Source of the DNA: Candidatus Doudnabacteria bacterium | GTDB taxonomy: Bacteria; Patescibacteriota; Doudnabacteria; UBA920 | Length of the DNA: 64,000 nt | Direction of reading: 5' to 3' | Assembly: GCA_016788665.1 (NCBI GenBank) | Contig: JAEUSF010000001.1 | Coordinates: 48,222-112,221 of the forward strand | Shown: positions 1,057 through 39,107 of the stretch, one piece after another | Layout: each line of letters begins with the position of its first letter | Position numbering within the stretch: the first letter of the stretch is position 1 | Position numbers and translations under genes: made by a program | The notes under the pieces: generated by a model | The model's database searches: none | What the model saw: the letters and a program-made list of their open reading frames with translations, nothing else | Told to the model about the DNA's origin: nothing

Positions 1057-3651
1057 CTAAAAATTGTTGCCTGGAATTTCGTAATTTAGAATAATACTGG
1101 TATCAGCGGAATTGCCTGTTACGTCCACCGCTTTGGCTGCTATTGTGTGTTTGCCGTTTCCATAGTTATCTGGCAAATCAAAAATATATGGAATGGAATT
1201 TATGCTCTTTATAAAATTGCCGTCCACCGAAATATCTATTCTGGCAATGTTATTTTCTCCAGTTGCTGCTATTTCTATTCGGACTGGCAGGCTGAAGACC
1301 GAAGAGTTATCTTCGGGTGAGTTTATACTTATAGCGGGTGGATTGCCTATATTTGTTGGGGTTGTTGAACCGTTCAGTGAGGCAGGGTAACCAAAGCCAT
1401 TTTTTAAGGCCCAGCCATTTACTGCATTTTCCCAATTTTGATTTTTTGGATTCTCGCTTTTATAAACTAAGTATGTGCGGTAGATTATTTGATTAGGGGG
1501 TGTTAGAGGTGTGGCTGGCTGCCCGGTAAAAGAATCTATCTCGACCGCTTTATGTACGTCGTCGTATTCAGTAGGGATACTGTAGCTGGCAAAAATTTCT
1601 GTCTTTGTAGTTGGAGTAAGTTGAGTTGGAAGTTTGCCCGAAACACTGTCAACAACAATTTCTTGAATACCCGAAGGTCTTTCAAATCGTTCGACAGGAG
1701 TGTCTTTTAGGGCGTTGGTCATAAACTCTTTCCAGATTGGTGCGGCAACAATGACACCGTCAGCTCCCCTCTTCATAAGACATTTAGGGTTTTTACTTCC
1801 ACAATTATTTCCACTCCATACTCCTGCTGCCAATGACGGAGTAAATCCCATAGTCCAGCCGTCGTGCCAGTCGTTTGTGGTGCCGGTTTTAGCTGCTACG
1901 GGTCTTCCTGGTAGTGTTAGTGGTGAGTTGGAGCCGAATACGTAGCTCCGGGCATTGTTATCTGACATAATATCTGTCAGTTCATAAACTGCCTGTGGGT
2001 CTAAAACTTCTTGGGGCTTATTTTGAAATTCTTCGACTATTTGATTGCTTCTGTCTTGTATTTTTAGAATAAAAGTAGTGGCATTTTTTACGCCCTTGTT
2101 TGCCAAAGTTGCATATGCGCTTGTGTGGTCAACCAGTTTTACTTCGCATCCTCCCAATACCAACGAAAGGCCACAATTAGACAGGGGGCTGGTTATGCCA
2201 AGTTTTTTAGCTGTCTCTGTGGCATTATCTACTCCGACTAATGCCAGAGTTTTTACGGCAGGTATGTTTAAACTGCCTGCTAAGGCTTGTCTCATAGAGA
2301 TGGGTCCCCTTTCAGAACCATCGTAATTTTGAGGTATATAGTCTTTGTTATTAAACTTTCCGAAATTTGTTGTGACATCCATTAACATACTCGCTGGGGC
2401 ATATTTGTGTTCTTTGTCGAAAGCGGTTACATATACATATGGCTTAAAACTGGAACCAGGCTGTCTGGGGGCAGTGGCTACGTTGAATTGAGGTTCAAAC
2501 AGACAATTGTCACCAGATTTGCAGCTTTCTGGTGAAGATGTTCCAAAATAGTTTTTACTGCCCACCAGAGCCAAAATTTGGCCTGTCTTTGGTTCAATAG
2601 CAACCAAGCTGGAGTTGTTGGCGTTGTATTTTTTAGCGTTATTTTCTGCATACTTATTAACAGCATCCTCAGCGATTTTTTGTAATTTTGGGTCTAGTGT
2701 CGTGTACACTTTTAAACCACCTTCTTGCAAGGTTTTCTCACCAAACTTTTCAGCCAAATAGTCTTCCACCATAAAGACAAAATGAGGCGCGGTTATAGAA
2801 GTTCTTATGTTGCTAAAAGCCACCTTTTCTTCCTTGGCTTGTTTTTCCTGTTCCTGGCTTATGTAACCATCTTCCCGCATTCGCTGCAAAATGTAATTTT
2901 TTCTACCATCTAAAGTTGTTCTGTTGGGGCCGAATGGGTTGTAGCGGCTAGGAGATTGTGGTAAGGCTGCAAGATAAGCTGCCTCTGCTAAGCTTAAGTC
3001 TTTGGCGTGTTTTCCAAAATATCCTTGGCTGGCTGCTTCGGCTCCGTAAGTGTTTTTTCCGTAGGGAATTTCGTTAAGGTACATTTGCAATATTTCATCT
3101 TTTGTAAACCTGGTTTCCATAGCCACGCTTAAAATAACCTCTCTAGGTTTTCTGTCCCATGCGCTGTAGTTTATTAAAATTGCATTTTTTACCAGCTGTT
3201 GTGTTATGGTGCTGCCCCCTCCCCCACTCCTGTCCAAATTCACGGCCAGTCTGAAAACCGCCCTGCCTATTCCTGTGAAAGAAATGCCATGATGTTTATA
3301 GAAATCTTTATCTTCTATGGCAATAGTGGCCTTTTTCAAGTACTCGGAAATTTCTTCAGATGGCACCAGAGTTCTTTTTACTTCGCCGTGTATTTCGTAT
3401 AGCAAGGAGTTGTCGCGAGCATAAATCTTTGTGCTTTCGGCAACTTGTCTTTCTACTAGTTTGCCCGGGTCAGGTAGGTCTTTAGAGTAATATAAAAACA
3501 GTACGGCGAACAAAAATATTCCAACCGCTGCAGTTCTAAAAAACCAAAGTGCTAAAGTTTTTATATTCCACTTAAAACTTCGTCCTTTGGATTTTTTAAA
3601 TTTTATTTTTTTCCCAGCCTTGTCTTTGCTCTCAAAGCTATATATCCGCAT
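1057..3651 (-). CDS. mrcA: class A penicillin-binding protein (bifunctional glycosyltransferase GT51 / transpeptidase), PBP1A-like
   Basis: N-terminal TM, GT51 motifs (GGSTITQQLVKN, RKxxE), transpeptidase SSFKP (SxxK) and KTGTT motifs, C-terminal extension. Confidence 0.85.
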   Translation of the reverse strand: MRIYSFESKDKAGKKIKFKKSKGRSFKWNIKTLALWFFRTAAVGIFLFAVLFLYYSKDLPDPGKLVERQVAESTKIYARDNSLLYEIHGEVKRTLVPSEEISEYLKKATIAIEDKDFYKHHGISFTGIGRAVFRLAVNLDRSGGGGSTITQQLVKNAILINYSAWDRKPREVILSVAMETRFTKDEILQMYLNEIPYGKNTYGAEAASQGYFGKHAKDLSLAEAAYLAALPQSPSRYNPFGPNRTTLDGRKNYILQRMREDGYISQEQEKQAKEEKVAFSNIRTSITAPHFVFMVEDYLAEKFGEKTLQEGGLKVYTTLDPKLQKIAEDAVNKYAENNAKKYNANNSSLVAIEPKTGQILALVGSKNYFGTSSPESCKSGDNCLFEPQFNVATAPRQPGSSFKPYVYVTAFDKEHKYAPASMLMDVTTNFGKFNNKDYIPQNYDGSERGPISMRQALAGSLNIPAVKTLALVGVDNATETAKKLGITSPLSNCGLSLVLGGCEVKLVDHTSAYATLANKGVKNATTFILKIQDRSNQIVEEFQNKPQEVLDPQAVYELTDIMSDNNARSYVFGSNSPLTLPGRPVAAKTGTTNDWHDGWTMGFTPSLAAGVWSGNNCGSKNPKCLMKRGADGVIVAAPIWKEFMTNALKDTPVERFERPSGIQEIVVDSVSGKLPTQLTPTTKTEIFASYSIPTEYDDVHKAVEIDSFTGQPATPLTPPNQIIYRTYLVYKSENPKNQNWENAVNGWALKNGFGYPASLNGSTTPTNIGNPPAISINSPEDNSSVFSLPVRIEIAATGENNIARIDISVDGNFIKSINSIPYIFDLPDNYGNGKHTIAAKAVDVTGNSADTSIILNYEIPGNNF

Positions 3652-3708: not shown

Positions 3709-4896
3709 ATGTCATCTAATATAATTGAAGAAATTTTAACCCGGGGTGTTGAGGAAGTTATTGACAAAGAGCAGTTAAAAATTGCCCTAATGTCAAAAAA
3801 AAGTCTTAGAATTAAGCTTGGTATTGACCCCACTTCTCCCAATATTCATATAGGTAGGGCTGTGGTCTTATGGAAGCTTAGAGCGCTACAGGAACTGGGT
3901 CACAAGGTGGTTTTTATTGTGGGTGATTTCACCGGCCAAATTGGCGACACCTCTGACAAAGATTCCGAGAGACCCATGTTGTCAGATGAGCAGATAAAAA
4001 ATAATATTAAAACTTATTTTAAACAGGCAGGAAAAATTATAGATGCTAAAAAAGCAGAGATGCATTATAATTCTCGGTGGTTAAAGAAGTTGGGTTTCTT
4101 AGAGATTGGAAAAATTGCCGACTTGTTTGGTCTCCATGAGTTTGAGGCGAGGGAAAATATTTCTCGAAGGCTAAAAAGTGGAAAAAGAGTTTCTTTAAGA
4201 GAACTGCTCTATCCTCTAATGCAAGGTTATGACAGTGTTGCGGTTAAGGCCGATGTAGAACTTGGCGGGACGGACCAAAGGTTTAATTTGCTTGCGGGTA
4301 GGGTGATTCAACCGTATTATGGCCAAAAACCCCAAAATATTTTAATGACCACCCTAATGGAAGGAACAGATGGTAGAAAAATGTCTTCTTCTTGGGGAAA
4401 TGTAATAAATATTACCGACTCCTCAAAAGACATGTTTGGTAAAGTCATGTCGGTGGGAGATGGTCTTATAAAAAAATATTTTGTTTTAGCGACCCGAGTG
4501 TCTTTAGACAAGGTAGAAGAGATTTTAAGTTTGAACAAAAATCCCAGAGACCAAAAACTTCTATTGGCTCAAGAAATTACTTCTTTATATTATGGTCCTA
4601 AAGTTGCAGAGTCGGAAAAAGAAGCGTTTATAAAACAGTTTACAAAAGGAGAGTTGCCGGAAGAGATTGAAAAACGGAAAATTACTGGTAAATTGTTGCC
4701 GGCTGGGCAGTATAAGTTGTCTAAATTACTAAAAGAAACCGGGCTTGTTTCTAGCACAGGAGAGTCTAGAAGATTAATAGACCAAAAAGGTGTAAAAGTA
4801 AATAATGTGGTTAGCGGGGATGTTGATTTAGTTATAGATGGTAAACAAGAGTATTTGTTGCAAGTTGGAAAAAGACGGTTTCTAAAAATAGTATAA
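3709..4896 (+). CDS. tyrS: tyrosyl-tRNA synthetase with C-terminal S4 domain
   Basis: Class I HIGH-like region (PTSPNIHIGRAV), KMSSS (KMSKS variant), C-terminal S4-like RRLIDQKGVKVNN. Confidence 0.8.
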   Translation: MSSNIIEEILTRGVEEVIDKEQLKIALMSKKSLRIKLGIDPTSPNIHIGRAVVLWKLRALQELGHKVVFIVGDFTGQIGDTSDKDSERPMLSDEQIKNNIKTYFKQAGKIIDAKKAEMHYNSRWLKKLGFLEIGKIADLFGLHEFEARENISRRLKSGKRVSLRELLYPLMQGYDSVAVKADVELGGTDQRFNLLAGRVIQPYYGQKPQNILMTTLMEGTDGRKMSSSWGNVINITDSSKDMFGKVMSVGDGLIKKYFVLATRVSLDKVEEILSLNKNPRDQKLLLAQEITSLYYGPKVAESEKEAFIKQFTKGELPEEIEKRKITGKLLPAGQYKLSKLLKETGLVSSTGESRRLIDQKGVKVNNVVSGDVDLVIDGKQEYLLQVGKRRFLKIV

Positions 4897-4910
4897 TAAA
4901 AATTTAAAAA

Positions 4911-4947
4911 CCCTCCCGTTTCTGCCGATTGGCAGGGGGAGGGTTTT
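4911..4947 (+). terminator. rho-independent terminator after tyrS
   Basis: ccctccc...gggaggg stem followed by TTTT. Confidence 0.7.
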
Positions 4948-5216
4948 GCTAACGCTATTTTCTTGTTTACATTTCGGAAGAGGTGCTGCCCTCTTCTTTT
5001 TCTTCGGTGCCTTCTGTTACTACGCCGCCGTCATTGGTGGCTCCACCCATTGGTTCGTCGTCAAAAAACATATTGTTTCTCCTGTAGTTTCTTTAAAAGA
5101 AACTTTAAAGATTAAATTTTACAATTCTCCGACGAAGAAGAACTGTATAAAAATTATAACATAGCTAATTTTGGTGTCTACTAAAATATTAATTTGTCTG
5201 TTGATAAGATGGTAAT

Positions 5217-5708
5217 TTAAAGATATTTGGAGTTTCTGTAAAAATGACCTGCACATAATGCTACCGCCAAGGCATCTGCCGCGTCGTCGGGTTTGGGAAT
5301 TTTCTTAAGCTTGAAAGTTTTTTGCACCATGTACTGAACTTGTTTTTTCTCCGCTTTTCCATAACCGCAAATAAAGTTTTTTACTTGCAAAGGTGTGTAT
5401 TCTAAGACTGGTAAAGAATTTGTTTGGCAAATATATAAAGCAACTCCGCGGGCTTGTGCTACAGTTATTGCAGTTTTTTGATTTGATGTAAAAAAAAGTT
5501 TTTCAACTCCTACGGCTTCAGGAGAGTATTTTTTTATAATATCCTTTATGTCGTCACCCAATATTTTAAGACGCTCTGCGTCGCTTAAAGTTTTTTTTGT
5601 TTCAATAACCCCAAAGTCAACCAGTTTAAATTCGCCTGATTTTTTATGGCTTTCTATTATTCCGTAGCCGGTCGTGGCGGTGCCGGGGTCGATACCGAGA
5701 ATGATCAT
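5217..5708 (-). CDS. ruvC: crossover junction endodeoxyribonuclease RuvC
   Basis: MIILGIDPGTATTGYGII N-terminus and catalytic acidic residues; about 160 aa. Confidence 0.85.
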   Translation of the reverse strand: MIILGIDPGTATTGYGIIESHKKSGEFKLVDFGVIETKKTLSDAERLKILGDDIKDIIKKYSPEAVGVEKLFFTSNQKTAITVAQARGVALYICQTNSLPVLEYTPLQVKNFICGYGKAEKKQVQYMVQKTFKLKKIPKPDDAADALAVALCAGHFYRNSKYL

Positions 5709-10160: not shown

Positions 10161-10320
10161 CCTACTACGCACCAGGCTTCGTAGGGCGAGCCTTATGCAA
10201 CAGGTTGTATTTAGTTAACCGCTTGTCCTCCGAAGCTTTACGCGAAGGAGGAAGCTACACGCCCATTGATAGATATTATAGTCGATGTATTACAAAGCAT
10301 CAAGTGTGTGTCTGTAAATA

Positions 10321-10346
10321 AAAAGGCACCCCTTAGGTGCCTTTTT
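10321..10346 (-). terminator. palindromic hairpin terminator downstream of gyrA (works on both strands)
   Basis: aaaaGGCACCccttaGGTGCCttttt. Confidence 0.65.
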
Positions 10347-10387
10347 ATTGTTTAGCTACTAGCCGCTCCCTACTTGCTACCAGCTTT

Positions 10388-21671: not shown

Positions 21672-23948
21672 TTAAAATTTTTCTTTTAAAGAATAAAACA
21701 TGTCATCAATTTGTTTGTACTCGGAAGAATCAGTACTCGACGAAGTTCTATAGTCTTCTGGGTCTATATCCACATATTTTTCATTTTCTAGCTCATGTAC
21801 CTTATGCTCTAGCTGTTTTTCAATTTCTTTAATATCAACTTCTAACTCCTCGCTTATTTCTCTAAAATCAGTTTTTAAATCCTCGTAGGAGCCTTCAGAA
21901 ACGTAATCAATTTCGTTTTCTAGTATATCATTTATTGAACTTTTTATTTCATCAGACAATTTAATTTTTTTATATTCCTCGGGAAAAATTTCCGCAAATT
22001 TAATAAAATATTTTACATCCTCAATTGACTCCATCGTTTTAGAAAAGAAATCGACAATGCCAGTTTTATCAAATTTGGTGAAAGGAGCAATTATTTCTAG
22101 TATATCAATATAAAAATTTTTATCTTCCCCTTTAATTTTATTATATTCAATATGTCCAAATATTTTAAAAACAAAATTCTGCCATTCCAAATCTTCGTTT
22201 AAACTCAAATTATTGATTGCTAATTTGAGTTTATATAAAATACTCGTCGACCTCCTAGCCCAATAATAAATAGCGTCAGCGCTAAAAGAATGTACAGTTC
22301 TTATCAAATGAGAGATTTTAAAATCAGAAAGTCCATTTTTTATATTTTCTTTAATTGTTTTAACTTGTTTTTTGCTTAGGATTATTTTTTCATTGCTCTC
22401 TTCATTAACCGAAAAAACTGTAAAAAATTGATTCAAAAAAATAACGTTCGTGATTAGGTCGTCAACTAAATCGGAATCTCTTTTTAGGTAATTTAGCAAA
22501 AAATCTTTGATTGAAGGATTTTGGAAGTCAATATATATTTGACCTCTTCCATCTCTTTTTGAAGATATGAATGTATTTTCAAGCTCCTTAATAGAGTCTT
22601 TTAATGAAAAGGAGTTAAAAGTAAAATTGTATTTTTTTGAATATTTTTGGGCAAATTTTATAAATGCTTCCTTTAAATCTTCAAATAACGCTGGGCCTCC
22701 CATAGAAAGCAAAACCATTAGTAAGCATTTGGAAAAATTAGTAATTTGCTTTTCATAACTGTGTTTCCATATCAATTCAGGGTTGTCTAGGTAATTAATA
22801 AATTTGTCAAAAAATTTTAAAGGCTTTATATTTTCCCAAATGCTAGGATTTGTAATAGTTTCAATTATCCTAGGATTATAATTGGGATGGTTAATAATAC
22901 CCATATAGTTTTTGTCCTCAAGGATGTTTTCTATATAGGGCTTGCTTATGTTTGAAAAATATAGATGATTGTATAAAATTCTTGACTTAACAAGTTTATT
23001 ATATTTTGATAAATCCAAAATACATTTTGCCAATTGAAGATTTTTATTATCTAGGCGTTCATAATTTACCAGGGCTTGATTTAAAATATATTCTCTTGTA
23101 GTCAGAATTAAGATTTTATTTTTAGATTTATTAACCAAGTCAATAAATTTAATTATTCTTTCATCCTCGTTGTTAGATATTTTATTTTCTAAAAAATTAG
23201 TTCCCAAAAAATCATCAAAAAGAAAAATTTGTTTTCTTTCAGGATTTAGAGCCTTGTATCCCTCCCCAATGTTATCAGATAAGTACACAAAATCTTCAAA
23301 GTCATTAGCCAAAAAATGATATACCAGTATTCTAGCCAATGTCGTTTTGCCTATACCTGGTATTCCCGATATTATTACGTACTTTTTTTTACTTAAGATT
23401 TCGAGAGCTTCGTTATAACTATCGTTCTCAACATACACTTTAATATTCTCTTTAATTGATTCTTCCTCGAAACTCGATTGATTGTATACTTTACTTTGTA
23501 CCAACTTTTCAAGAATAGAAGTACTAGATAACCATAACTTGAAATGTCTTTTTTCTACATCGGGGAATTTTCCGAGTAAATTATTTAAATCGCTTCTGCT
23601 GAAGATGTCATTAGGAGAAATGATTATAGGCTTACATAAATCAAAAATAGTTTGTTTTTGTTTTCGTGATAAAGGTGAGGATGTTGTTAGTATATATCTT
23701 TTTGGTTTAAGTTTAATCGCTTTTCCGGCCTCTTTTTTTATATTTGAAATTAAGGAATTATAATTTTCGTATCTTTTACACTGCACAATAATTGTTTCCT
23801 CTTTGTCTTGATAGCAACGTAAATCAATTCCACCATCTCGACCAGCAATAAAACTTTCCAGACGAATATTAAGGAATTTTTGAAGCAAGTCCCTAGACAG
23901 AACCTCAAATTCAATCGACGATAAATTTAAAAAATTATAAATATCCAT
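21672..23948 (-). CDS. Avs-like antiviral STAND protein: N-terminal Mrr-like PD-(D/E)xK nuclease + STAND (NB-ARC-type) NTPase + helical C-terminal domain
   Basis: Residues about 10-70: FEVLSRDLL...GRDGGIDLR...IIVQCKRY (Mrr_cat-like, D...QxK). Walker A VIISGIPGIGKTTLARIL, Walker B KQIFLFDDFLG, then ILILTTREYIL (NB-ARC/STAND TTR motif). About 430 aa helical C-terminus. 3-nt gap to the upstream OLD gene. Confidence 0.8.
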   Translation of the reverse strand: MDIYNFLNLSSIEFEVLSRDLLQKFLNIRLESFIAGRDGGIDLRCYQDKEETIIVQCKRYENYNSLISNIKKEAGKAIKLKPKRYILTTSSPLSRKQKQTIFDLCKPIIISPNDIFSRSDLNNLLGKFPDVEKRHFKLWLSSTSILEKLVQSKVYNQSSFEEESIKENIKVYVENDSYNEALEILSKKKYVIISGIPGIGKTTLARILVYHFLANDFEDFVYLSDNIGEGYKALNPERKQIFLFDDFLGTNFLENKISNNEDERIIKFIDLVNKSKNKILILTTREYILNQALVNYERLDNKNLQLAKCILDLSKYNKLVKSRILYNHLYFSNISKPYIENILEDKNYMGIINHPNYNPRIIETITNPSIWENIKPLKFFDKFINYLDNPELIWKHSYEKQITNFSKCLLMVLLSMGGPALFEDLKEAFIKFAQKYSKKYNFTFNSFSLKDSIKELENTFISSKRDGRGQIYIDFQNPSIKDFLLNYLKRDSDLVDDLITNVIFLNQFFTVFSVNEESNEKIILSKKQVKTIKENIKNGLSDFKISHLIRTVHSFSADAIYYWARRSTSILYKLKLAINNLSLNEDLEWQNFVFKIFGHIEYNKIKGEDKNFYIDILEIIAPFTKFDKTGIVDFFSKTMESIEDVKYFIKFAEIFPEEYKKIKLSDEIKSSINDILENEIDYVSEGSYEDLKTDFREISEELEVDIKEIEKQLEHKVHELENEKYVDIDPEDYRTSSSTDSSEYKQIDDMFYSLKEKF

Positions 23949-23951
23949 AAA

Positions 23952-25913
23952 TTAAAGAGACTGGAATAAAGTAGTTATAACGCTAGGTATGTTTTGTTTG
24001 TCTTTAATTACAGATTTTATTAATTTGCCACTTTTTTCTCCCTTACTTGGCAGGCAGGCTTTTTTCTCTTTATTACTATCAAGATAAACTTTGTCACTTA
24101 GTAGCTTGTAAAACTTATGTTCTCTATCATTCTTTAAATCTTTTCTAATTTCTCTAAAAACACTCTCGTCATAATTAAGACCGCAACACTCTTTTAAAAC
24201 TTCAATCCAAACGCTGTCGTCTATGGAATCTTCTAAGTCATAAGTCCCAATCAAAGTAATATTTTTAGCGGATAAAGCTGAATCAGAGTCAAGCAGGTAA
24301 TAAACATGTTCTTCGCTTTTTTGAAAGTTTTTTAAAAGCTCTTCAAACATAGTTTTATTTTTTTTACATTCATCTTTCCCCCCTAGATTAATAAGTTGAA
24401 TTGAATCCTGCATTAGTGTTCTTCCAAAATACAACTCATAAAAATAAGGTATTAAAATTTCTTCGGTGGGTCCTTCTACACACAAAAATTTATCGTAAAA
24501 TAAGAAGTCGCTACTTTTAACTTTTAATGAGTTTAGGACATCTTCAACATTAGAGCATTCTAAAATTTCAGAATAACCATCTTTCAAAGTAAAACGTTTT
24601 ATATTTTTAATGTTCAGTCTGTCAACAAAAATTGTCGAATGAGTGCTAACAAAAACTTGATAATAACTTTGAGATAATTTTTTTAAAATATTATATAAAT
24701 CTCTTTGAGCAGCAGGGTATAGATGAATTTCTGGTTCATCAAAACACCATAGAAATTTTTTTCTAATATCTTCAGTCGTTATTTTTTGTAAACTTGCCCA
24801 TTTAATAAATGCAAACCAAATCTGTTTTTTTACTCCCTCTCCTTGTGACTCCAGTCTTATATCACCATCACTACTAGTTTTATTTATCATAATATCTGAA
24901 ACATTTTCCTCAATATTAAAACTAACTGCTGCTTTTATGGCAGTAATATTTGGGAGTTCTTCAAAAAGATTGCCGGCTTTCCCTGCAAGTTCTTGATTTA
25001 CTTCTTGTGTAACGGTTTCACTGAGTTCCTTTGCACTTGTTTGCAGCGTATTTTTATATCCTTCTATTTTTGAAGCCATTGAATCAGCCGCAAGTTTTTC
25101 GACATCTTTTAGAGTTACGTTCCAGTCAATATAACGACAAACTGGGAAAAACCCCTTATCTTTTTTTACAAAATCTTTGTGCTCAGCCCAGCTTAGCTCC
25201 ACATCACTTTTACTATAAATTGCCCTAATCAATTCAATGTTTTTAAATCTCCCTTTTTTATTTTCGTTTACAACTTCATCATTTGAAATATCCAATTCAC
25301 CCTTTTTATCTTTTAAAAAAGTTTGATTTTGACTCCAAAGCTGTAATGGATTCGATTTTGTTTCTTTAAGGCAAACAAAATATTTACCCGAGGAATTTTC
25401 CTTTGTAAATTGCTTGAGTATATATAGTTTATTTTCGGTTAAACTTTCTATGCTCCACTTAAGTATGTTAGTCGAGCTTTCGACAAAATCTTCACTAATA
25501 TCTTTTTCTTCAATTTTAAACTCCCCGATTATTGTCGTTGTGTTTTCAGTAAAATTAAAGATGGGTAAATTTAACTTTTCAAAGATTGAGTTATAATCTA
25601 ACTCGCTTATGCCCGTGTTTGAAATATCTGAAGTTAATTGGCCTTCTTTCGCAATATGAAAAGTACTATCCGTTTCTAATAGTAAACAAATGGCTTTTAA
25701 AAAAACAGATTTTCCAGCATCATTTATGCCAATGAAAACATTTGGAATATCCGGCTGTAAATCGACTATGACGTTTTTACAACTTTTGTAATTTATAATA
25801 GCCAAACGTTCTAAAATCATATTGATATTTTTTATTAAAGGCACCGCTGAATCAATTATAGGCTTAATTTTGCGAACAAACAAGTATAAATTTGTACAAT
25901 TTTTTAAGAACAT
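23952..25913 (-). CDS. OLD-family (overcoming lysogenization defect) nuclease: ABC/AAA_15-type ATPase + Toprim
   Basis: Walker A FIGINDAGKSVFLKAI; long coiled insertion; Walker B/D-loop LWCFDEPEIHLYPAAQ; Toprim glutamate FLCVEGPTEEILIP and DxD YLLDSDS. A probable true start is the internal ATG at 25818-25820 (MILERLAIINYK...). Confidence 0.85.
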   Translation of the reverse strand: MFLKNCTNLYLFVRKIKPIIDSAVPLIKNINMILERLAIINYKSCKNVIVDLQPDIPNVFIGINDAGKSVFLKAICLLLETDSTFHIAKEGQLTSDISNTGISELDYNSIFEKLNLPIFNFTENTTTIIGEFKIEEKDISEDFVESSTNILKWSIESLTENKLYILKQFTKENSSGKYFVCLKETKSNPLQLWSQNQTFLKDKKGELDISNDEVVNENKKGRFKNIELIRAIYSKSDVELSWAEHKDFVKKDKGFFPVCRYIDWNVTLKDVEKLAADSMASKIEGYKNTLQTSAKELSETVTQEVNQELAGKAGNLFEELPNITAIKAAVSFNIEENVSDIMINKTSSDGDIRLESQGEGVKKQIWFAFIKWASLQKITTEDIRKKFLWCFDEPEIHLYPAAQRDLYNILKKLSQSYYQVFVSTHSTIFVDRLNIKNIKRFTLKDGYSEILECSNVEDVLNSLKVKSSDFLFYDKFLCVEGPTEEILIPYFYELYFGRTLMQDSIQLINLGGKDECKKNKTMFEELLKNFQKSEEHVYYLLDSDSALSAKNITLIGTYDLEDSIDDSVWIEVLKECCGLNYDESVFREIRKDLKNDREHKFYKLLSDKVYLDSNKEKKACLPSKGEKSGKLIKSVIKDKQNIPSVITTLFQSL

Positions 25914-26417: not shown

Positions 26418-26491
26418 TGGAGCGGCTAAGGGGAATCGAACCCCTATCCTCTCCATGGCAAGGAGAAGTTCTACCATTGAACCATAGCCGC
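26418..26491 (-). tRNA. tRNA-Gly, anticodon GCC
   Basis: GCGGCTA...TCTCC-TTGCCAT-GGAGA...GGGGG-TTCGATT-CCCCT-TAGCCGC-T-CCA. Confidence 0.85.
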
Positions 26492-26536
26492 AAGTAATAA
26501 CTATTTTATCAATTCTATTTAATTTGGCAAATTTTT

Positions 26537-26611
26537 TGGTGCCGCGGGTCAGGATCGAACTGACGACACGACGCTCTTCAGGCGTCTGCTCTACCACTGA
26601 GCTACCGCGGC
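26537..26611 (-). tRNA. tRNA-Phe, anticodon GAA
   Basis: GCCGCGG-TA-GCTC-AGTGGTA-GAGC...GACGC-CTGAAGA-GCGTC...GTCAG-TTCGATC-CTGAC-CCGCGGC-A-CCA. Confidence 0.85.
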
Positions 26612-26614
26612 TTG

Positions 26615-26847
26615 TTTAACTTGTTTTTTAAAAGCCTTCTTCCAGCTGCTGTTTTTAAATACAATTCTCTTTTTCTAGCTTCGTCGAATGTATTAAGTTC
26701 TTCAGTATAAACTATTTTAATATTTTCCATTCTTGAAGTGGTTTAAGTATGTCCGTATTTGTGTTCTTTAAGACGTCTTTCCAGATCCTTAGTCATTCCT
26801 TTGTATAGCTTACCATCTTTATCTCTCAATACATATACAGTATACAT
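26615..26847 (-). pseudogene. frameshifted GIY-YIG nuclease gene (second copy of the tRNA-associated cassette)
   Basis: Minus strand from ATG 26845-26847: MYTVYVLRDKDGKLYKGMTKDLERRLKEHKYGHT then stop. Shifted frames continue ..KPLQEWKILK.. and ..VYTEELNTFDEARKRELYLKTAAGRRLLKNKLNK, the same family as 18633-18878. Confidence 0.65.
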
Positions 26848-26862
26848 AGTTATATAGGTATT

Positions 26863-26929
26863 GGCGTCTGCTCCCCGCCCGACTGAACGGCTTCAGTCGT
26901 TCGGGCGGGTACCACTGAGCTACCGCGGC
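26863..26929 (-). repeat. truncated tRNA-Phe 5' duplicate (nt 1-20 + 37-bp GC hairpin + nt 21-31)
   Basis: 26910-26929 equals tRNA-Phe 5' end (taccactgagctaccgcggc). Hairpin cccgcccgactgaacggcttcagtcgttcgggcggg; then ggcgtctgctc matches the next 11 tRNA nt. Confidence 0.75.
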
Positions 26930-27072
26930 TCGTTTGGATTACTATGAGCCCGCACTACGCCTTGATTACATCTAGGCTTCGGCGCGCAGCCTTCGCAATA
27001 ATACAACTTTCGATAAATCTTCAAACTTGGTTTACGCTTTTTGGCGTAAGCCAGCCGAAGCTTTAGCGAAGG

Positions 27073-27149
27073 CTGGTGGGCAATAAAGGATTCGAACCTT
27101 TGGCCTTCTCGGTGTAAACGAGACGCTCTAACCAACTGAGCTAATTGCC
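27073..27149 (-). tRNA. tRNA-Val, anticodon UAC
   Basis: GGGCAAT...TCTCG-TTTACAC-CGAGA...AAAGG-TTCGAAT-CCTTT-ATTGCCC-A-CCA. Confidence 0.85.
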
Positions 27150-27341
27150 CGTAATAATTTCAATGCCTCAGAGACGAGACTTGTATAAGCAGATTTAATT
27201 TTATGACGCTTGTCCGCTATAGCCACTTAAGCGACAGCGGCGGAAGCTAATTGCCCTAAGTTTATATACTAAATGTTTTTTAAGCCACAAATCTTTTTTC
27301 GCCTGCTGTAATTAGCGTAAAAAACTTGCCCAAATACTATA

Positions 27342-30091: not shown

Positions 30092-32020
30092 TTACAAAGT
30101 TTTAAGTTTTATTTTTTCTTCGTAAGCCTCTATAACGTCGCCCTCTTCTATTTTTACTTGGGTTTTAAGTTTGGTTCCGAATTCTTCACCCATATGTACA
30201 TTTTTAGCGGCGGCTTTGTTATGCTGTAGTTCTTCTATTTCGGCTTTGCCTATTTCAGCGCCGTCTCGGTAAATTGTGATTTTGGAAACTTTGGTTAGCT
30301 GTCCTTCTTCTACTCTTCCGCCAATTATAATTTGCCCTTTTTCTCTTCGGAAAATTGCCAGTATTTTGGCTTTGCCCATAATTATTTTTTCAGTTTCTGG
30401 GGTAAAGAGTTTTATGACCGCACTGGTAACATCTTCTATGAGTTCGTATATGACTTCGTAAGTGTCTATAATTACGTTTTTTTGTTTAGCCAAGTTTTCT
30501 GCACGAGGACTTATTTTATTTCTAAAGTTTAGAACGGCAGCTTTTCCGTTGGTTGCGGTCATTATGTCGTTTTCGCTTATTTCGCCGACCCCTTCTGACA
30601 AAATATTTATTTTAACTTCGTCGTTTTTTAGTTTGGCAATAGATTGTTTTATGGCTTCTAGGCTTCCTGCTACATCTGCCTTTAAAACTAAATTTAAAGA
30701 TTTTGTCTTTATGTCGCCTTGTATTTGGCTTTTTGACTGAAGCTTGTGACTTTGAAGTTTACGTTTTGTTATGACAGCTATTTGCTTGGCTTCGTCTAAG
30801 CTGGACAGGGACTGTACAATGTCCCCTGCCTGAGGAACTTCGGAAAGACCTGAAATTTGAGCTGGGGTGGAAGGAGTGGCTTCTTTAAGTCTTCGGCCTG
30901 TTTCGTCTTCCAGTGAGCGTATGCGTCCGAAAGCAGCTCCGGCAGAGACAATGTCTCCAACTTTAAGTGTGCCGTTTTGTATTATAACTGAAGCAGTAGC
31001 GCCTTTACCCTGTGTAAGTTTAGATTCAATAACTGTACCAATGGTTTTGCCTGAAGGGTTGGCGGTAAAATTTTCAACTTCTGCTGTGAGCAATATCATT
31101 TCGAGTAAGTTGTCTATACCTTTGTTTTGTTTGGCAGAAATTTCAACTGCTATGGTTTTGCCTCCCCATTCTTCGGTTAGAACCCCTGCTCCCGCGAGCT
31201 CCTGTTTTGCTCTCATAACATTGGCGTCTGGTTTGTCGACTTTGTTTATGGCGACTATCATCGGAGTGTTCGAAAACTTGGCGCGGTTTATGACTTCTAG
31301 TGTCTGAGGTCTTACTCCGTCGTCTGCTGCTATAACTAAAACAATTATGTCGGTAACATTGGCACCTCTGGCCCGCATTTCCGAAAAAGCTTCGTGACCT
31401 GGCGTGTCTAAAAAGGTTATTTGTTTACCATTGTGTTTTATTTGGTAAGCGCCAATGTGTTGGGTTATTCCGCCGCTTTCACCGTCTGCTACTTTTGTTT
31501 TTCTTATGGTGTCCAAAAGGGTAGTTTTTCCGTGGTCAACATGGCCCATTATTGCAACAATTGGAGGACGGGATTTTAAGTTGGCCTGTAATTCGGTTTT
31601 TAAAACCTCGTGTAAAAAACCAATTCCAAAATGTTGTTGTGTGTTATCGGCTTGGCTGCTAACTTCAAAACCCAAATCTTGTGCGACTATGCTGGCGGTG
31701 TCGAAATCAATCTCTTCGTTTATGGTAGCCATTACGCCATTTTTTATTAACTCCTTTATAACGTCGACGACGGGGATGTTAAGTGAAACGGCAAAATCCC
31801 TAACTTTTATAAAAGTTGGGAGCTTGATGGTTTTAACCGAAACAGTTTCTTCTGGTGCCGCTGCTTTTTTTACTATTCCAAGCGCGTCGGCAATTTTTTT
31901 TGCAAGCGCATTGTCTATTTTGTTAGCTCTGGGCGATATAAAAAAACCTTTCTCTTTTGCTTTCACGCGGAGGTCTTGTATGGAAATATTTAATTGGGAC
32001 GAAAGCGAAGAGAGGTCCAT
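30092..32020 (-). CDS. infB: translation initiation factor IF-2
   Basis: GTPase motifs ([21 protein letters not shown]) and C-terminal IF2 beta-barrel domains. Confidence 0.95.
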
Positions 32021-32143
32021 TTAGTTAAATGCAAAATTATAAATGCGAAATGCAGAGTGAAATTTCTATAACTTGTTTACAGTATCATAAAAGTATAATA
32101 AAATCAAGTATTTTTGCATAAAAAAAACCGCTTGAATTTTACT

Positions 32144-33568
32144 TCAGGCGGGTTGCGCTTTTGCGATTTTAATTAGATGCCCAACAGGAGTTGGGTACTG
32201 ACGGGTGTAACACGCATAGCAGTACCTTGTATCTTGTCCGTCGTTAACCGCCGTTTGGAGTTTTTCCAAAGGGAGATAACCCAAGCTATTTGCTCCCAGG
32301 AATTTTCGCGTTTCGTCCAGCGACATGCGGTTTGCAATAAGTTTGCTTTCGCTCGGGGTGTCTACTCCGTAGAAGCACGAACCTGTGGTGGGCGGGCACG
32401 AAATACGGACGTGCACTTCGGTAGCACCGCTTTCTCGAACCATACCTACTATTTTTGCCAGCGTGGTGCCGCGCACAATTGAGTCGTCGACCAGGACAAC
32501 TCTTTTGCCTTTAAGGAGTTGATGTACCGGGTTAAACTTGTTTTGTACTTGTTCGTCGCGGTAACGCTCGTCTCCTTCAATGAATGTCCTGCCAACGTAG
32601 TGGTTTCGGATGATTCCTCTAACTAAAGGAATCCTGGATTCCATGGAGTAGCCTTCTGCAGCCGCAATGCCTGAGTCGGGCACGGCGACCACAGCGTCGG
32701 CTTCCACAGTGTGGGTTTGGGCTAGGAAGCGGCCCATGGTTTGGCGGTCCTGCATTACAAACCGTCCAAACACGACTGAGTCGGGTCTGGAAAAGTACAC
32801 GTGCTCGAAGACGCAACGCGACTCTGGGGCGGGGCCTCCATACGAGTCTGAAGAACTCGTGTTGTGAGAGGAAAAAAATATCTCACCAGGCTGAATTTCC
32901 CGCACGTACTTAGCGCCAAGATGGTCTAGGGCGCAGGTTTCCGAGGCAATGACTTGGAAAGTTCGCCTCCCGTTGTCAAAGCCTACTCCCAAGACTAGTG
33001 GTTTAAAACCGTGTTTGTCTCGGATGGCGTAGACGCCTTCGGTGGAAAGAATGACTAGCGCGAACGCTCCCTCGACTTCTAAGAGCGCCTCTTTTATTGC
33101 CGCGAGTAAATTGGGAGCTTTGGCATGAGCGATGAGCAGCAGTATGACTTCCGAGTCGCTCGTGCTTACCGGGGTTATGTCCCTGAGCGCTAAACGAACT
33201 CTCAGTTCGTCGGTGTTCGTAACGTTACCGTTGTGGGCCAATGCAATTGGCCCAAACCTTGACTCGAAGTAAAACGGCTGGGCGTTTAGAACTGCCTTGT
33301 CGCCACTTTTTTCGCCTTGGGTTGCGTAGCGGTTATGCCCAATTGCAAACTGGCCTTTAAGTTCCTTGGTTACGCTGGGAGTCAGGGCATTTCTAACCAA
33401 GCCGAGCCCTTTTTGGACTTTTATTTTTTCGTCCCCTAAGACGGCCACGCCGGCGGCTTCTTGGCCGCGGTGCTGCAGTTGAAACAGCCCGTCGGCAGCT
33501 ATTCTTCCGGCTTCCGGGTGTCCGCAGACACCCACAACTCCGCATTCTTCCTTGAACTTGTCGAACAT
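32144..33568 (-). CDS. purF: amidophosphoribosyltransferase
   Basis: N-terminal nucleophile Cys (ECGVVGV), class II amidotransferase domain, type I PRTase motif VVLVDDSIVRGTT, C-terminal Cys cluster. Confidence 0.85.
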   Translation of the reverse strand: MFDKFKEECGVVGVCGHPEAGRIAADGLFQLQHRGQEAAGVAVLGDEKIKVQKGLGLVRNALTPSVTKELKGQFAIGHNRYATQGEKSGDKAVLNAQPFYFESRFGPIALAHNGNVTNTDELRVRLALRDITPVSTSDSEVILLLIAHAKAPNLLAAIKEALLEVEGAFALVILSTEGVYAIRDKHGFKPLVLGVGFDNGRRTFQVIASETCALDHLGAKYVREIQPGEIFFSSHNTSSSDSYGGPAPESRCVFEHVYFSRPDSVVFGRFVMQDRQTMGRFLAQTHTVEADAVVAVPDSGIAAAEGYSMESRIPLVRGIIRNHYVGRTFIEGDERYRDEQVQNKFNPVHQLLKGKRVVLVDDSIVRGTTLAKIVGMVRESGATEVHVRISCPPTTGSCFYGVDTPSESKLIANRMSLDETRKFLGANSLGYLPLEKLQTAVNDGQDTRYCYACYTRQYPTPVGHLIKIAKAQPA

Positions 33569-33595
33569 CTCTTTATCCCCCTCTGAGTTTTGGAA

Positions 33596-33720
33596 TACAA
33601 AAACCCCGCTACTTGCGGGGGCTTAAGAGGTTACACTGCGGCCTTGGACATAAGTCTTGGGCCGATGTGAAAATCTCATAGGCAGGCATTATAACAAAAG
33701 TTTAGTTTTAGGCAAAGTTT
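33596..33720 (-). promoter_or_regulatory. purF promoter (TTTGCC-17-TATAAT) and leader intrinsic terminator (candidate attenuator/riboswitch)
   Basis: Minus orientation: cTTTGCCtaaaactaaacttttgtTATAATg, then about a 115-nt leader ending gcccccgcaagtagcggggttttt, about 25 nt before the purF RBS GAGGGGGA. Confidence 0.55.
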
Positions 33721-33728
33721 TTTAAAGG

Positions 33729-34463
33729 TTAAAGCCTATTCCAAATAAAATTGAAAATGGATTGTAAACCGGCAGAAATTTCTTTGCTTCGGATTATTAC
33801 TCCCACCGGTTCGCTGTCTTCCCTGTATACAGCAAAAGAAACATTGTTGCCGTATATATTTATACCTAACGGCATGGAAAAAAACTTTTCTTCAACATTT
33901 TTTACTTCTCTTAGCTCATGCGTGTCGGATTTCATTTTAAAAATGCCGGCCGTTTTGGGACCGCTAATTAGCATTTTGAGAGGAATTTTTTTTCTCACTC
34001 TCGCCCATATGTAGTCTTTTTTTATGTACTTAGATATTTCGGGTTGTATTTTTTCTATGCCAACAATTTCTAGAATTGGCTCCCCTTGTTCAATGTGGTC
34101 TTGGTAAACTTTTTTTATTCCCTCTATGCCTTCATATAGGGAAATTTTGGGTCGCGATTTTGCCGTGAGCATTAAAGATTGCAGAAGTGGAATTTGGTTT
34201 TGTAAGGCTTCAAGCTCCAACTTTTTTGCCTCCAAAAACTTTTGCGGGTCTTCGGGGACTAAAAATTGTCTCTTGCCTTTTATGCTTTTGGAAATTAGAC
34301 CCTTTTCAAACAGTTTGGGAATAACTTCGTAAAGGGTTGGTCTTTTAATACCCGCTTTTTCCGCCAGCTGTTTGTGGAGAGATTCTCCTAGTTCTAAGGC
34401 GGCCAGGTAAATTTGGCTTTCTGTTTTAGATAAGCCTAAGTTTTCAAGAATTTTTGAATTCAT
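33729..34463 (-). CDS. TrmB family transcriptional regulator
   Basis: N-terminal winged HTH (LGLSKTESQIYLAALELGESL...GIKRPTLYEVIPKLFEKGLI), TrmB-like C-terminal domain. Confidence 0.65.
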   Translation of the reverse strand: MNSKILENLGLSKTESQIYLAALELGESLHKQLAEKAGIKRPTLYEVIPKLFEKGLISKSIKGKRQFLVPEDPQKFLEAKKLELEALQNQIPLLQSLMLTAKSRPKISLYEGIEGIKKVYQDHIEQGEPILEIVGIEKIQPEISKYIKKDYIWARVRKKIPLKMLISGPKTAGIFKMKSDTHELREVKNVEEKFFSMPLGINIYGNNVSFAVYREDSEPVGVIIRSKEISAGLQSIFNFIWNRL

Positions 34464-34569
34464 GTAAAAAGTGTAGTATTTTTTGACACTTTTGTAAAGT
34501 AGAATGGCTAATTATCTGTTGGCAATACATAATTAGTCGTCACTAAGTGACGACGGAAAGGAGGATTTA

Positions 34570-37595: not shown

Positions 37596-39107
37596 ATGTC
37601 AGAAACTAAAAAAATAGGGCAGTTTATTTCGGAGCTTAGGCAGGAAAGAGGTTTGACGCAAGGTGAGTTGGCGCAAGCATTAAAAACCACACAGTCCGCC
37701 GTTGCAAGAATGGAAAAAGGTCAGCAAAATTTTTCTACAGAAATGCTTAGTAAAATAAGCAAAGTACTAAACAAGGAAATTATTACTTTGGCGGGGCAGA
37801 GCGTGAATTTTAAAGTTGAGGGCGGGCATAAATTAAAAGGCAGAATTGTTACGAACACTTCAAAGAATGCCGCCTTGGGTCTCTTGTGTGCTTCTCTGTT
37901 AAACCGCGGGGTTACAACTCTAAAAAATGTTCCTAAAATAGAAGAGGTTTTCAGAATTTTGGAAGTTATAAATAGCATTGGGGTAAAAACCGAATGGAAA
38001 AATTCTGACTTGGTTATAGTGCCTCCGAAAAAGTTTAGTATAGAAGGGCTTAATTACGAAGCGGCAATAAAAACCCGCAGCGTTATTATGCTTATGGGGC
38101 CCTTAATACATTTTGTTAAAAAATTCTCACTCCCCTTTGCAGGCGGGTGTAAGCTTGGGGAGCGAACTGTCGCACCCCATTTGTTTGCTTTGGAAAGTTT
38201 GGGAGTGGAAATAAAAACTGTGCATGATCATTACGATGTCGAAGCTAAGAAGTTAAAACCGGCAGAAATTGTTTTGTATGAAATGGGTGACACCGTTACA
38301 GAAAATGCTCTTATGGCTGCAGCGCTTGTGCCTGGTAAGACCACAATAAAATATGCATCGGCAAATTATATGGTTCAAGATATGTGTTTGTTTTTGGAGC
38401 ACATGGGGGTCAAAATCGAAGGAGTGGGTACTACCACTTTAATGGTGTGGGGTAAAGAAAAAATAGACGAAGATGTGGAGTTTAGCGTTATGGAAGACCC
38501 TATAGAGTCAATGATGTTTTTGTCATTGGCTGCTGTAACCAATTCGTCTATTGTGATAGAGCGTTGCCCAATAGATTTTTTGGAGCTTGAATTGTATAAA
38601 ATGCGCAAAATGGGTTTTAAATATAAAATTATAAAAAGTTATAAATCTGGTAATGCCCATACCAATTTGGCAGATATCCAAACTTTTGAGTCCTCGCTGG
38701 TGGCCTTGGGTGAAAAAATTCATCCTCTGCCTTCAAATAGCGGCATAAACATAGACAATTTGCCATTCTTTGTGCCTATAGCGGCAAAAGCTAAAGGTAA
38801 AACTTTAATTCACGATTGGGTATATGAGAATCGTGCTATATATTATTTGGAGCTAAATAAGCTTAGGGCAAATATAAGTTTGGCAGATGCTCATAGGGTT
38901 TATGTTGAAGGACCGACTAAGTTTAAGGCGGCGGAAGTTATTTGTCCGCCCGCACTTCGTCCGGCGGTAATTATTTTAATTACTATGTTGGCGGCTGAGG
39001 GTACCAGTATTTTGCGAAATGTTTATTCCATTGCACGCGGATACGAAGATCTGGCTAGTCGACTTAAGTCCCTTGGTGCTAAAATAGAAGTATTGAAAGG
39101 TATATAA
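37596..39107 (+). CDS. murA: UDP-N-acetylglucosamine 1-carboxyvinyltransferase with N-terminal XRE-type HTH domain fusion
   Basis: Residues 1-62 form a complete HTH_XRE (FISELRQERGLTQGELAQAL...). Residue about 70 onward is canonical MurA (KLKGRIVTNTSKNAALGLLCA...; active-site Cys in FAGGCKLGERTVAPH). TATAAT promoter upstream. Confidence 0.85.
   Translation: MSETKKIGQFISELRQERGLTQGELAQALKTTQSAVARMEKGQQNFSTEMLSKISKVLNKEIITLAGQSVNFKVEGGHKLKGRIVTNTSKNAALGLLCASLLNRGVTTLKNVPKIEEVFRILEVINSIGVKTEWKNSDLVIVPPKKFSIEGLNYEAAIKTRSVIMLMGPLIHFVKKFSLPFAGGCKLGERTVAPHLFALESLGVEIKTVHDHYDVEAKKLKPAEIVLYEMGDTVTENALMAAALVPGKTTIKYASANYMVQDMCLFLEHMGVKIEGVGTTTLMVWGKEKIDEDVEFSVMEDPIESMMFLSLAAVTNSSIVIERCPIDFLELELYKMRKMGFKYKIIKSYKSGNAHTNLADIQTFESSLVALGEKIHPLPSNSGINIDNLPFFVPIAAKAKGKTLIHDWVYENRAIYYLELNKLRANISLADAHRVYVEGPTKFKAAEVICPPALRPAVIILITMLAAEGTSILRNVYSIARGYEDLASRLKSLGAKIEVLKGI

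Follow-up and report, generated by a model that had tools for sequence, protein, structure and literature searches.

What does an intrinsic terminator do when it lies between a promoter and the gene that follows? The question is raised by the purF locus of a Candidatus Doudnabacteria bacterium (Patescibacteria), contained in a 64,000-nucleotide stretch of the assembly GCA_016788665.1 (contig JAEUSF010000001.1, positions 48,222 to 112,221 of the forward strand). This whole stretch is referred to as the window, and coordinates given without a locus number are positions within it. On the minus strand of the window, the purF gene (encoding amidophosphoribosyltransferase) is preceded by a promoter, a short leader, and a terminator, an arrangement that a first-pass annotation had described as a candidate riboswitch or attenuator. 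All three parts are present, and the arrangement is conserved upstream of purF at six other loci, which makes it a dedicated purF leader that has a promoter of its own and contains a terminator. A short ATG...TAA open reading frame (ORF) fills the leader and its stop codon abuts the terminator, a feature that the first-pass annotation had overlooked. The leader is read here as a ribosome-occlusion transcription attenuator dedicated to purF (a coupling-type, pyrBI-like element), a reading that we hold with slightly more confidence than doubt.

Anatomy of the purF Leader

The predicted purF leader promoter (33715–33688, minus strand, as are all leader features) is of the sigma70 type and combines a −35-like hexamer with a TGnTATAAT motif. 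A consensus scan placed the extended −10 element, TGTTATAAT with its TG, at 33688–33696 and the −35 element at 33710–33716, where it can be read as TTGCCT (33715–33710) or as TTTGCC one base upstream, giving a spacer of 16–17 nt; the promoter scores 10 of 12 matches in addition to the TG. The mini-ORF (33623–33679) starts with an ATG (33679–33677) 9 nt past the −10 element, lacks a Shine–Dalgarno sequence, and consists of 18 codons (predicted peptide MRFSHRPKTYVQGRSVTS) followed by a TAA stop codon (33625–33623). A single nucleotide separates the UAA from the C-rich 5′ arm of the intrinsic terminator (33594–33621), which is composed of the 5′ arm CCCCCGC (33621–33615), the loop AAGTA, the 3′ arm GCGGGG (33609–33604), and the U-tract TTTTTGTATT (33603–33594). 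The core of this structure (CCCCGC-AAGTA-GCGGGG, 33620–33604) has the six G–C pairs, 5-nt loop, and U-rich tail (U5GUAUU) of an intrinsic terminator and is the sole terminator call with six G–C pairs within 31.5–36 kb. The leader is approximately 111–113 nt long and its U-tract ends approximately 10 nt ahead of the purF Shine–Dalgarno sequence (AGAGGGGG, 33577–33584, read from the sequence), so the leader length and spacing of the first-pass annotation were approximately right.

Association of the Leader with purF

Close relatives of the PurF protein of the window are few: among 5.8 billion clustered proteins only those of loci L001 (83% identical) and L044 (81% identical) were found, and the next-best matches, from Acidobacteria and similar groups, are approximately 53% identical. 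Additional relatives were recruited via the neighboring TrmB protein, which yielded two kinds of locus. Four loci (L046, L047, L049, and L056) share the gene order, with trmB directly followed by infB, and contain neither purF nor the leader element. Locus L048 carries a divergent purF gene (42% identical to that of the window) at a different position in the neighborhood, with a recognizably homologous leader in front of it, and the leaders of L050, L051, and L052 were found through relatives of the L048-type PurF. The comparative set consists of seven homologous leaders (the window, L001, L044, L048, L050, L051, and L052, six of them from other Patescibacteria contigs), every one of which immediately precedes purF. 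All four of the scanned clade representatives (window, L048, L052, and L050) exceed the TIGR01134 cutoff; PurF identity between clades is 42–53% for the pairs that were measured, and the leaders are nevertheless homologous. In L050 and L052 no trmB gene is found next to purF, the gene upstream of the element being a DAGK-like gene or an 81-aa ORF. Since the element precedes purF also where trmB is not upstream, and is missing from the trmB-infB relatives that lack purF, it belongs to purF and not to trmB. It remains attached to purF across four different gene arrangements.

The association is exclusive within the sequences that were searched. A profile hidden Markov model of the seven leaders matches only those seven in 1.1 Mb of sequence (window and loci, both strands), and there the pattern TATAMT-N7-10-ATGAGA, too, occurs in no other place. 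A scan of the same 1.1 Mb for a −10-like box followed by an ATG-initiated ORF of 8–40 codons with a stop codon abutting a terminator returned the seven purF leaders and one other site. That site (10285–10347, plus strand, returned by the scan as 10285–10317; 10 codons, MYYKASSVCL) precedes a bidirectional terminator between a tRNA gene and gyrA and is probably a chance match. The architecture is present in 0 of 42 purF loci from outside the Candidate Phyla Radiation (CPR; L002–L043), and no further leader was found in the TrmB-anchored loci (L046, L047, L049, and L053–L059) or in one PurF locus (L060). A pattern scan of metagenomes returned one match only (L045, a chance occurrence inside a coding sequence) and a scan of viral contigs returned none.

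Within the seven leaders the promoter boxes are kept while the flanking intergenic DNA diverges. The extended −10 element, TG(T/C)TATA(A/C)T, is present in all seven, and a −35-like block, TTTTGC(C/A), in five (window, L001, L044, L048, and L052) of the six with enough upstream sequence, the sixth, L050, having TTTTTA; the sequence of L051 is cut off on the 5′ side before its −35 position and is outside this comparison. The −10 element ends 8–9 nt ahead of an invariant ATGAGA without a Shine–Dalgarno sequence (7/7), and a pyrimidine–purine step is found at the expected transcription start. Each leader contains an open frame (18, 18, 18, 20, 20, 20, and 22 codons) and a TAA stop codon directly ahead of the terminator, and at all seven loci the purF ATG follows 54–77 nt further on, with a G-rich Shine–Dalgarno sequence. 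The 35–60 nt between terminator and purF leave no room for a promoter and contain no conserved one, and purF expression therefore depends on transcription passing the terminator. A second promoter in this interval was considered and rejected: in some clades the U-tract does overlap with −10-like strings, which lack both a −35 element and the TG and fit the T-tract-plus-A/T terminator tails that are general in these genomes. The joint conservation of promoter, leader, and internal terminator implies conditional read-through, and this part of the first-pass interpretation, the attenuator, stands.

The predicted leader peptides are poorly conserved among the seven: in addition to that of the window they read MRFSHRPWSQNQGRSVTS (L001 and L044), MRHKYKHRNNFSFFQGLSVT (L048), MRHKYKHRNNFPNLQGLSVT (L051), MRHKYRQRHIFTTFYGLITS (L052), and MRYKRCKLNTDSRDLHSRAIPA (L050). 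At the nucleotide level AUGAGA and GGYCNCAGUGUAACCU stand out as conserved leader sequence. The block CCAAGGYCNCAGTGTAACCT is common to the clade of the window and that of L048 despite a PurF identity of just 42%, and is not retained in L052 or L050, whereas ORF, stop position, and terminator persist in both. The leader blocks of the window and L001 are 100% identical, whereas 38% of the codons for the same amino acid differ in the adjacent purF genes.

Position of the Stop Codon Relative to the Terminator

[quoted passage not shown] This spacing was compared with 33 terminators that follow long ORFs in the same CPR loci. At these ordinary gene ends the core starts at least 9 nt after the stop codon in 32 out of 33 cases (median approximately 40 nt) and none of the 33 cores starts at a distance of 0–8 nt. 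A ribosome protects approximately 10–12 nt 3′ of its A site (PMC4824070), and the core of the 5′ arm falls inside this reported footprint, which would give the overlap between ribosome and terminator that characterizes coupling attenuators.

The leader terminator is of the same style as the terminators at gene ends of these genomes. Intrinsic terminators in the window and 11 CPR loci are strongly polarized, with a C-rich 5′ arm and a G-rich 3′ arm in 41 out of 51, and in many of these 51 predicted terminators the stem follows an A-tract and the tail is of the TTTA type. The G-rich 3′ arm was considered as a purF-specific GTP-sensing pause, which is ruled out by the same orientation of those 41 terminators.

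Indirect Evidence for Translation of the Mini-ORF

Three observations suggest that the mini-ORF is a translated frame. First, the frame is maintained in all seven leaders: in shuffled sequences the frame is open with a probability of 0.25–0.48, which multiplied by 1/3 for an in-frame terminal TAA gives 0.08–0.16 per lineage, and the joint probability of an open frame with an in-frame stop codon is approximately 1e-3 for the three lineages other than that of the discovery. Second, the length differences between clades, from the ATG to the GGYC block and from the block to the stop codon, are 9 and 3 nt. Third, the leaders of L001 and L044 differ at just two positions, both synonymous third positions (CGG>CGA and CGC>CGT), the former of which breaks a stem pair without compensation. 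Selection appears to act on the translation of a frame of such length and not on the peptide itself.

Because the mini-ORF has no Shine–Dalgarno sequence and its ATG lies 9 nt after the −10 element, it is probably leaderless or nearly so. A start of apparently leaderless type is found next door: trmB has a conserved −10 element (TACACT) 6 nt ahead of its ATG and no Shine–Dalgarno sequence at 9 of 10 loci examined (the start of the L001 gene is mis-set), making leaderless initiation plausible in this lineage.

RNA Structure and Tests for a Riboswitch

The first-pass annotation had proposed a riboswitch of the purine, ZTP, or PRPP (phosphoribosyl pyrophosphate) type, while noting that no riboswitch consensus could be matched by eye. 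In a scan with Rfam 15, only tRNAs were found in the whole window at the gathering score, and at E ≤ 10 the region 33500–33800 (301 nt) gave three weak matches, all on the opposite strand, and none on the leader strand. No antiterminator was found by visual inspection or constrained folding (window, L048, L052, and L050, with L001 also folded); when either terminator arm was blocked in the five leaders tested, the alternatives were 10–16 kcal/mol worse and provided 2–3 kcal/mol of new pairing.

The RNA of the window does form a long imperfect hairpin over the mini-ORF (33624–33678, by folding) of −19 to −21 kcal/mol (z approximately −3.5, window and L001). Its base, UGAGA/UCUUA, joins the regions of the start and stop codons and is followed by the helices CAC/GUG and CGGCC/GGCCG and a variable distal stem, which differs in sequence yet pairs in both the window (GAC/GUC) and L001 (UGGU/ACCA). 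The hairpin is restricted to the window, L001, and L044 and absent in the other four leaders, whose mini-ORF regions have z-scores of −0.16 (L048), −0.83 (L051), −0.67 (L052), and +0.69 (L050); L048, L051, and L052 keep a helix of 6–7 bp, UGAGAC/GUCUCA. Since it is not shared among the clades, the hairpin was treated as a clade-specific accessory and not as the core of the element. With no Rfam match, no antiterminator, and a hairpin confined to its own clade, the riboswitch part of the first-pass interpretation is not supported.

No pairing between the leader and the purF Shine–Dalgarno sequence was found to be conserved; in one fold this sequence pairs with bases upstream of the predicted transcription start, a pairing that L001 and L044 do not share. 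Each leader contains U-runs (U3–U6), none of which is positionally conserved, and a possible pause hairpin is limited to the clade of the window. Antitermination of the boxA type was also considered and set aside: the string CCUCUUAA, which resembles the boxA of lambda and rrn, is not conserved in the other clades.

A Proposed Ribosome-Occlusion Model

In the proposed attenuator, transcription would start approximately 0–3 nt before the AUG without a Shine–Dalgarno sequence and produce a leaderless or nearly leaderless first cistron of 18 codons. With a ribosome on the last codons or the stop codon at the time the polymerase makes the 3′ arm and the U-tract, the 5′ arm would lie inside the mRNA channel; held by the ribosome, it would be kept from forming the hairpin and transcription would read through into purF. 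With no initiation, or with a ribosome that lags behind, the hairpin would form and transcription would terminate after approximately 85 nt. The terminator stem ends 76–90 nt past the AUG, a proximity that would make the decision a matter of kinetics, with the first ribosome in a race with RNA polymerase. This race might be set by polymerase speed or pausing (supply of nucleoside triphosphates, NTPs), by how efficiently leaderless initiation takes place, or by stalling of the ribosome. The candidate signals are purine-NTP-dependent polymerase speed or pausing, the efficiency of leaderless initiation dependent on initiation factor IF2 and GTP, and ribosome stalling in amino-acid shortage. In a more specific version, low ATP or GTP would slow the polymerase or make it pause in the leader, allowing the ribosome to catch up, occlude the terminator, and turn purF on. 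This purine-nucleotide-sensing counterpart of pyrBI is offered tentatively and we regard it as doubtful.

The effect of stop codon position on termination has been measured in E. coli, where placing the stop codon 5 instead of 28 bp before the terminator tR2 reduces termination from approximately 90% to <10%, an effect that is lost when translation is uncoupled (PMC4824070). Terminators located in an ORF's first 100 bp remain functional since the first ribosome is still behind at that point, with the exception of leaders in which pausing couples ribosome and polymerase, as in pyrBI (PMC4824070). Low GTP is reported to strengthen pauses before G in E. coli (PMC13192712).

Weighing the Model against Alternative Explanations

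Several points weigh against this attenuator. We infer translation of the mini-ORF from frame maintenance in seven leaders, indels in multiples of three, and two synonymous changes, and the comparison covers 4–5 independent lineages. The substitutions between L048 and L052 are distributed as 7, 5, and 7 over the three codon positions; with no third-position excess and weak peptide conservation, the coding case rests on frame maintenance and not on purifying selection. The window and L001 show no synonymous change in 14 shared codons compared with 38% in purF (p approximately 0.001), indicating a nucleotide-level constraint on RNA or DNA beyond coding; in the clade of the window this extra constraint could reflect a hairpin that causes pausing, a timer by which the AUG is shut once the first ribosome is on the RNA, or a site for a protein or a ligand. 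An A-tract (TAAAA) is common before terminators in these genomes, which makes a TAA beside the stem less improbable. Counted from the −10 hexamer the ATG is at the 9th–10th base, a little more distant than expected of an exactly leaderless start, and in the clade of the window the base of the −19 to −21 kcal/mol hairpin encloses the AUG, so that initiation would be hindered once the 3′ strand is made. Finally, no codon run or pause signal in the leaders compared reveals what is sensed.

Four other explanations were considered. In the first, promoter, short transcript, and terminator form an unregulated element, a constitutively leaky terminator or insulator or else a small RNA or mini-protein gene, which also ends trmB read-through and leaves purF with a fixed fraction of transcription. 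This we judge unlikely, although the terminator is strong, nothing in the RNA appears able to switch it, and the window contains no other terminator between trmB and the leader; furthermore, the approximately 85-nt transcript predicted in the clade of the window would fold like a small RNA, with a stable hairpin followed by a terminator. An unregulated element would not be expected always to accompany purF, in four gene arrangements and never elsewhere, nor to carry a stop codon abutting the terminator, a spacing seen at none of 33 ordinary gene ends. The lack of a promoter after the terminator also argues against it, as does L052, where the upstream gene already ends in its own terminator ahead of the purF promoter.

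Protein-dependent attenuation or antitermination, in which an RNA-binding or polymerase-modifying factor reads AUGAGA, GGYCNCAGUGUAACCU, or the hairpin and the frame is incidental, is quite unlikely. Such a factor would leave the frame maintenance and the fixed geometry between stop codon and terminator arm unexplained, the shared block is lost from L052 and L050 while ORF, stop position, and terminator stay, and no candidate protein is consistently linked, trmB not being beside purF in those two loci. It would account for the leader identity between the window and L001 despite the synonymous divergence of purF, for the block common to two clades with PurF proteins 42% identical, and for a weakly constrained leader peptide, and the absence of an antiterminator is as in factor-dependent systems.

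A novel riboswitch, in which the leader RNA (the hairpin with its internal loops in the clade of the window) binds a purine-related metabolite and shifts the stability of the terminator, is very unlikely. The gene context fits, purF being a common riboswitch target, and nucleotide conservation exceeds what coding needs; the loops are invariant and the distal stem varies yet pairs (z approximately −3.5). Too little variation is available for a covariation test, and the G>A change in L044 breaks the stem without compensation. The leader matches no Rfam family even at E ≤ 10 and offers no alternative pairing between hairpin and terminator, and in three other clades the hairpin is missing and the RNA folds no better than shuffled sequences. 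It is mainly because of the clade-specific hairpin that protein binding and a riboswitch retain any probability at all.

The last explanation is that the hairpin is the plain terminator of trmB and the promoter-like site a chance match. According to the first-pass annotation the hairpin was to be taken as the trmB terminator if neither an Infernal match nor an antiterminator existed. Both are indeed absent, and the hairpin is the first terminator that the window has downstream of trmB (108 nt past the stop codon of that gene), but synteny shows that this rule gives a wrong result in the present case. The explanation is extremely improbable and already contradicted by the comparative data, in which the trmB-infB relatives (L046, L047, L049, and L056) lack the element, the element precedes purF after a DAGK-like gene or an 81-aa ORF (L050 and L052), and the extended −10 is kept while flanking intergenic DNA diverges.

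The purF Gene and Its Neighborhood

The purF gene of the window (32144–33568, minus strand, ATG at 33568) encodes a protein of 474 aa that is a TIGR01134 equivalog (455 bits compared with a cutoff of 350) with the Pfam domains GATase_6/7 and Pribosyltran. It ends in a terminator of its own (32120–32151, minus strand, read from the sequence), CCGCCTGAA-gtaaaa-TTCAAGCGG followed by T8, which overlaps the TGA stop codon; an equivalent terminator was found in L001 by a terminator scan. Carrying a terminator at its stop codon, purF is monocistronic. Its TGA lies within the 5′ arm of this terminator, unlike most gene ends in these loci. The gene is flanked by infB downstream (30092–32020) and the gene of a TrmB-family regulator upstream (33729–34463). 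Co-regulation of purF and infB was ruled out in view of the separate terminator of purF and the promoter-like region of infB.

No further purine biosynthesis (pur) gene is present in the 64-kb window, making purF an orphan. Its occurrence in the clade is sporadic (it is absent from several close relatives) and its position shifts within the conserved neighborhood DUF4446-bactofilin-DAGK-...-trmB-infB-rbfA (window, L046–L052, and L056). In L001 the purF gene (4001–5418) is split by masked bases and a frame shift into the ORFs 3968–4951 and 4936–5418, which reflects an artefact of assembly or masking, or else a pseudogene.

A perfect palindrome, AAGTGT-N11-ACACTT, is located before trmB (34470–34490, within 34464–34498, minus strand), where it overlaps the −10 element (TACACT) and ends 6 nt before the ATG. 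The same palindrome is found before trmB in about ten relatives (among them L046:4974–4994, L047:4974–4994, L048:2135–2155, L049:4589–4609, L051:2129–2149, L056:7977–7997, L059:766–786, and L001:3079–3099) and probably serves TrmB as an auto-operator, the mRNA being leaderless. Its position places the trmB start of L001 at approximately 3107 instead of the TTG at 3058. TrmB was also considered as a regulator of purF and rejected: the palindrome occurs once in the window, before trmB only, and the heptamer AGTGTAA in the leader is a lone half-site that is absent from L050 and L052.

Two other regions of the window stand out. A defence-like gene pair (21672–25913, minus strand), situated beside a tRNA cluster (26421–27150), encodes a 758-aa protein with an Mrr_cat nuclease and an nSTAND3 NTPase and a 653-aa OLD-family protein (AAA_15/AAA_21 and TOPRIM). 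At 37596–39107 (plus strand) an N-terminal HTH_3 domain is fused to an enzyme of the EPSP_synthase fold (MurA/AroA-like), and the same fusion is found at the same position in L046 (638–2146), L047 (701–2215), L049 (322–1839), and L056 (2789–4312).

Comparison with Known Systems

To our knowledge, almost nothing is known about gene regulation in the Patescibacteria/CPR, organisms that cannot be grown alone, and we know of no leader-peptide attenuator for purF; a full-text literature search for one found none. If the purine-nucleotide-sensing version of the model is correct, the element would be the first leader-peptide attenuator to be described for purF and, for the Patescibacteria/CPR, the first cis-regulatory attenuator open to experiment, with leaderless initiation as part of the sensor. 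The element is compact and conserved (approximately 130 nt), its logic of start codon, stop position, and terminator is clear and testable, and heterologous or cell-free coupled systems could be used to assay it. More generally, for scanning pipelines, a leader terminator without an Rfam match should prompt a search for a mini-ORF abutting it before a novel riboswitch or a stray upstream terminator is assumed.

The known purine-pathway riboswitches and motifs (purine RF00167, ZTP/pfl, the PRPP and ppGpp variants of ykkC subtype 2, NMT1, 2′-dG-II, and the purD motif) share with the purF leader a position in the 5′ leader of a purine gene and a terminal terminator. They differ from it in that the purF leader has no sequence or structure match to them, no conserved aptamer fold, and no alternative pairing that could serve as an expression platform.

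The amino acid leaders trpL, hisL, leuL, thrL, and pheL have the same order of promoter, short ORF, intrinsic terminator, and biosynthetic gene, and the hairpin inside the leader ORF in the clade of the window could possibly act like their 1:2 pause hairpin. In contrast to trp- and his-type leaders, the purF leader has no 2:3 antiterminator that excludes a 3:4 terminator and its peptides have no regulatory codon run, nothing repeated being held in common beyond Arg2. The predicted outcome also differs: a ribosome at the stop codon would cause read-through in the purF leader and termination by trp-type logic.

Leaderless first cistrons that control a biosynthetic gene in cis are another point of likeness. 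Attenuators with leaderless leader peptides exist in Corynebacterium and resemble the purF leader in this first-cistron control. The leaderless polycysteine short ORFs of mycobacteria are first cistrons of the same kind; they sense Cys-tRNA via runs of Cys codons and act on translation by unmasking a downstream Shine–Dalgarno sequence (Canestrari et al., bioRxiv 10.1101/834739), whereas the output of the purF leader is an intrinsic terminator and its ORF contains no codon run.

The closest counterparts are the pyrBI (pyrL) and pyrE leaders of E. coli and Salmonella. The picture of these as coupling attenuators owes part to the general body of Turnbough's work. In both pyr leaders a short ORF is translated up to an intrinsic terminator and read-through depends on ribosome–polymerase coupling (PMC5021804, PMC4824070), as established for the pyrBI/pyrL attenuator (PMC5021804). 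No antiterminator helix is needed, the leading ribosome physically blocks the hairpin, the distance between ribosome and polymerase decides the outcome, and the target gene belongs to nucleotide biosynthesis, all as proposed for the purF leader. The differences lie in the details of the leader: pyrL has 44 codons and a Shine–Dalgarno sequence and runs through the terminator, whereas the purF mini-ORF has 18–22 codons, is apparently leaderless, and stops 1–3 nt before the stem, and the defined UTP-sensitive pause sites in the U-runs of pyrBI contrast with a purF leader in which no purine-specific pause signal was identified. The regulated gene, purF, and the host, a member of the Patescibacteria, also differ. 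Coupling attenuation, so far known for enterobacterial pyrimidine genes, would thereby be extended to the committed step of purine synthesis and tied to leaderless initiation.

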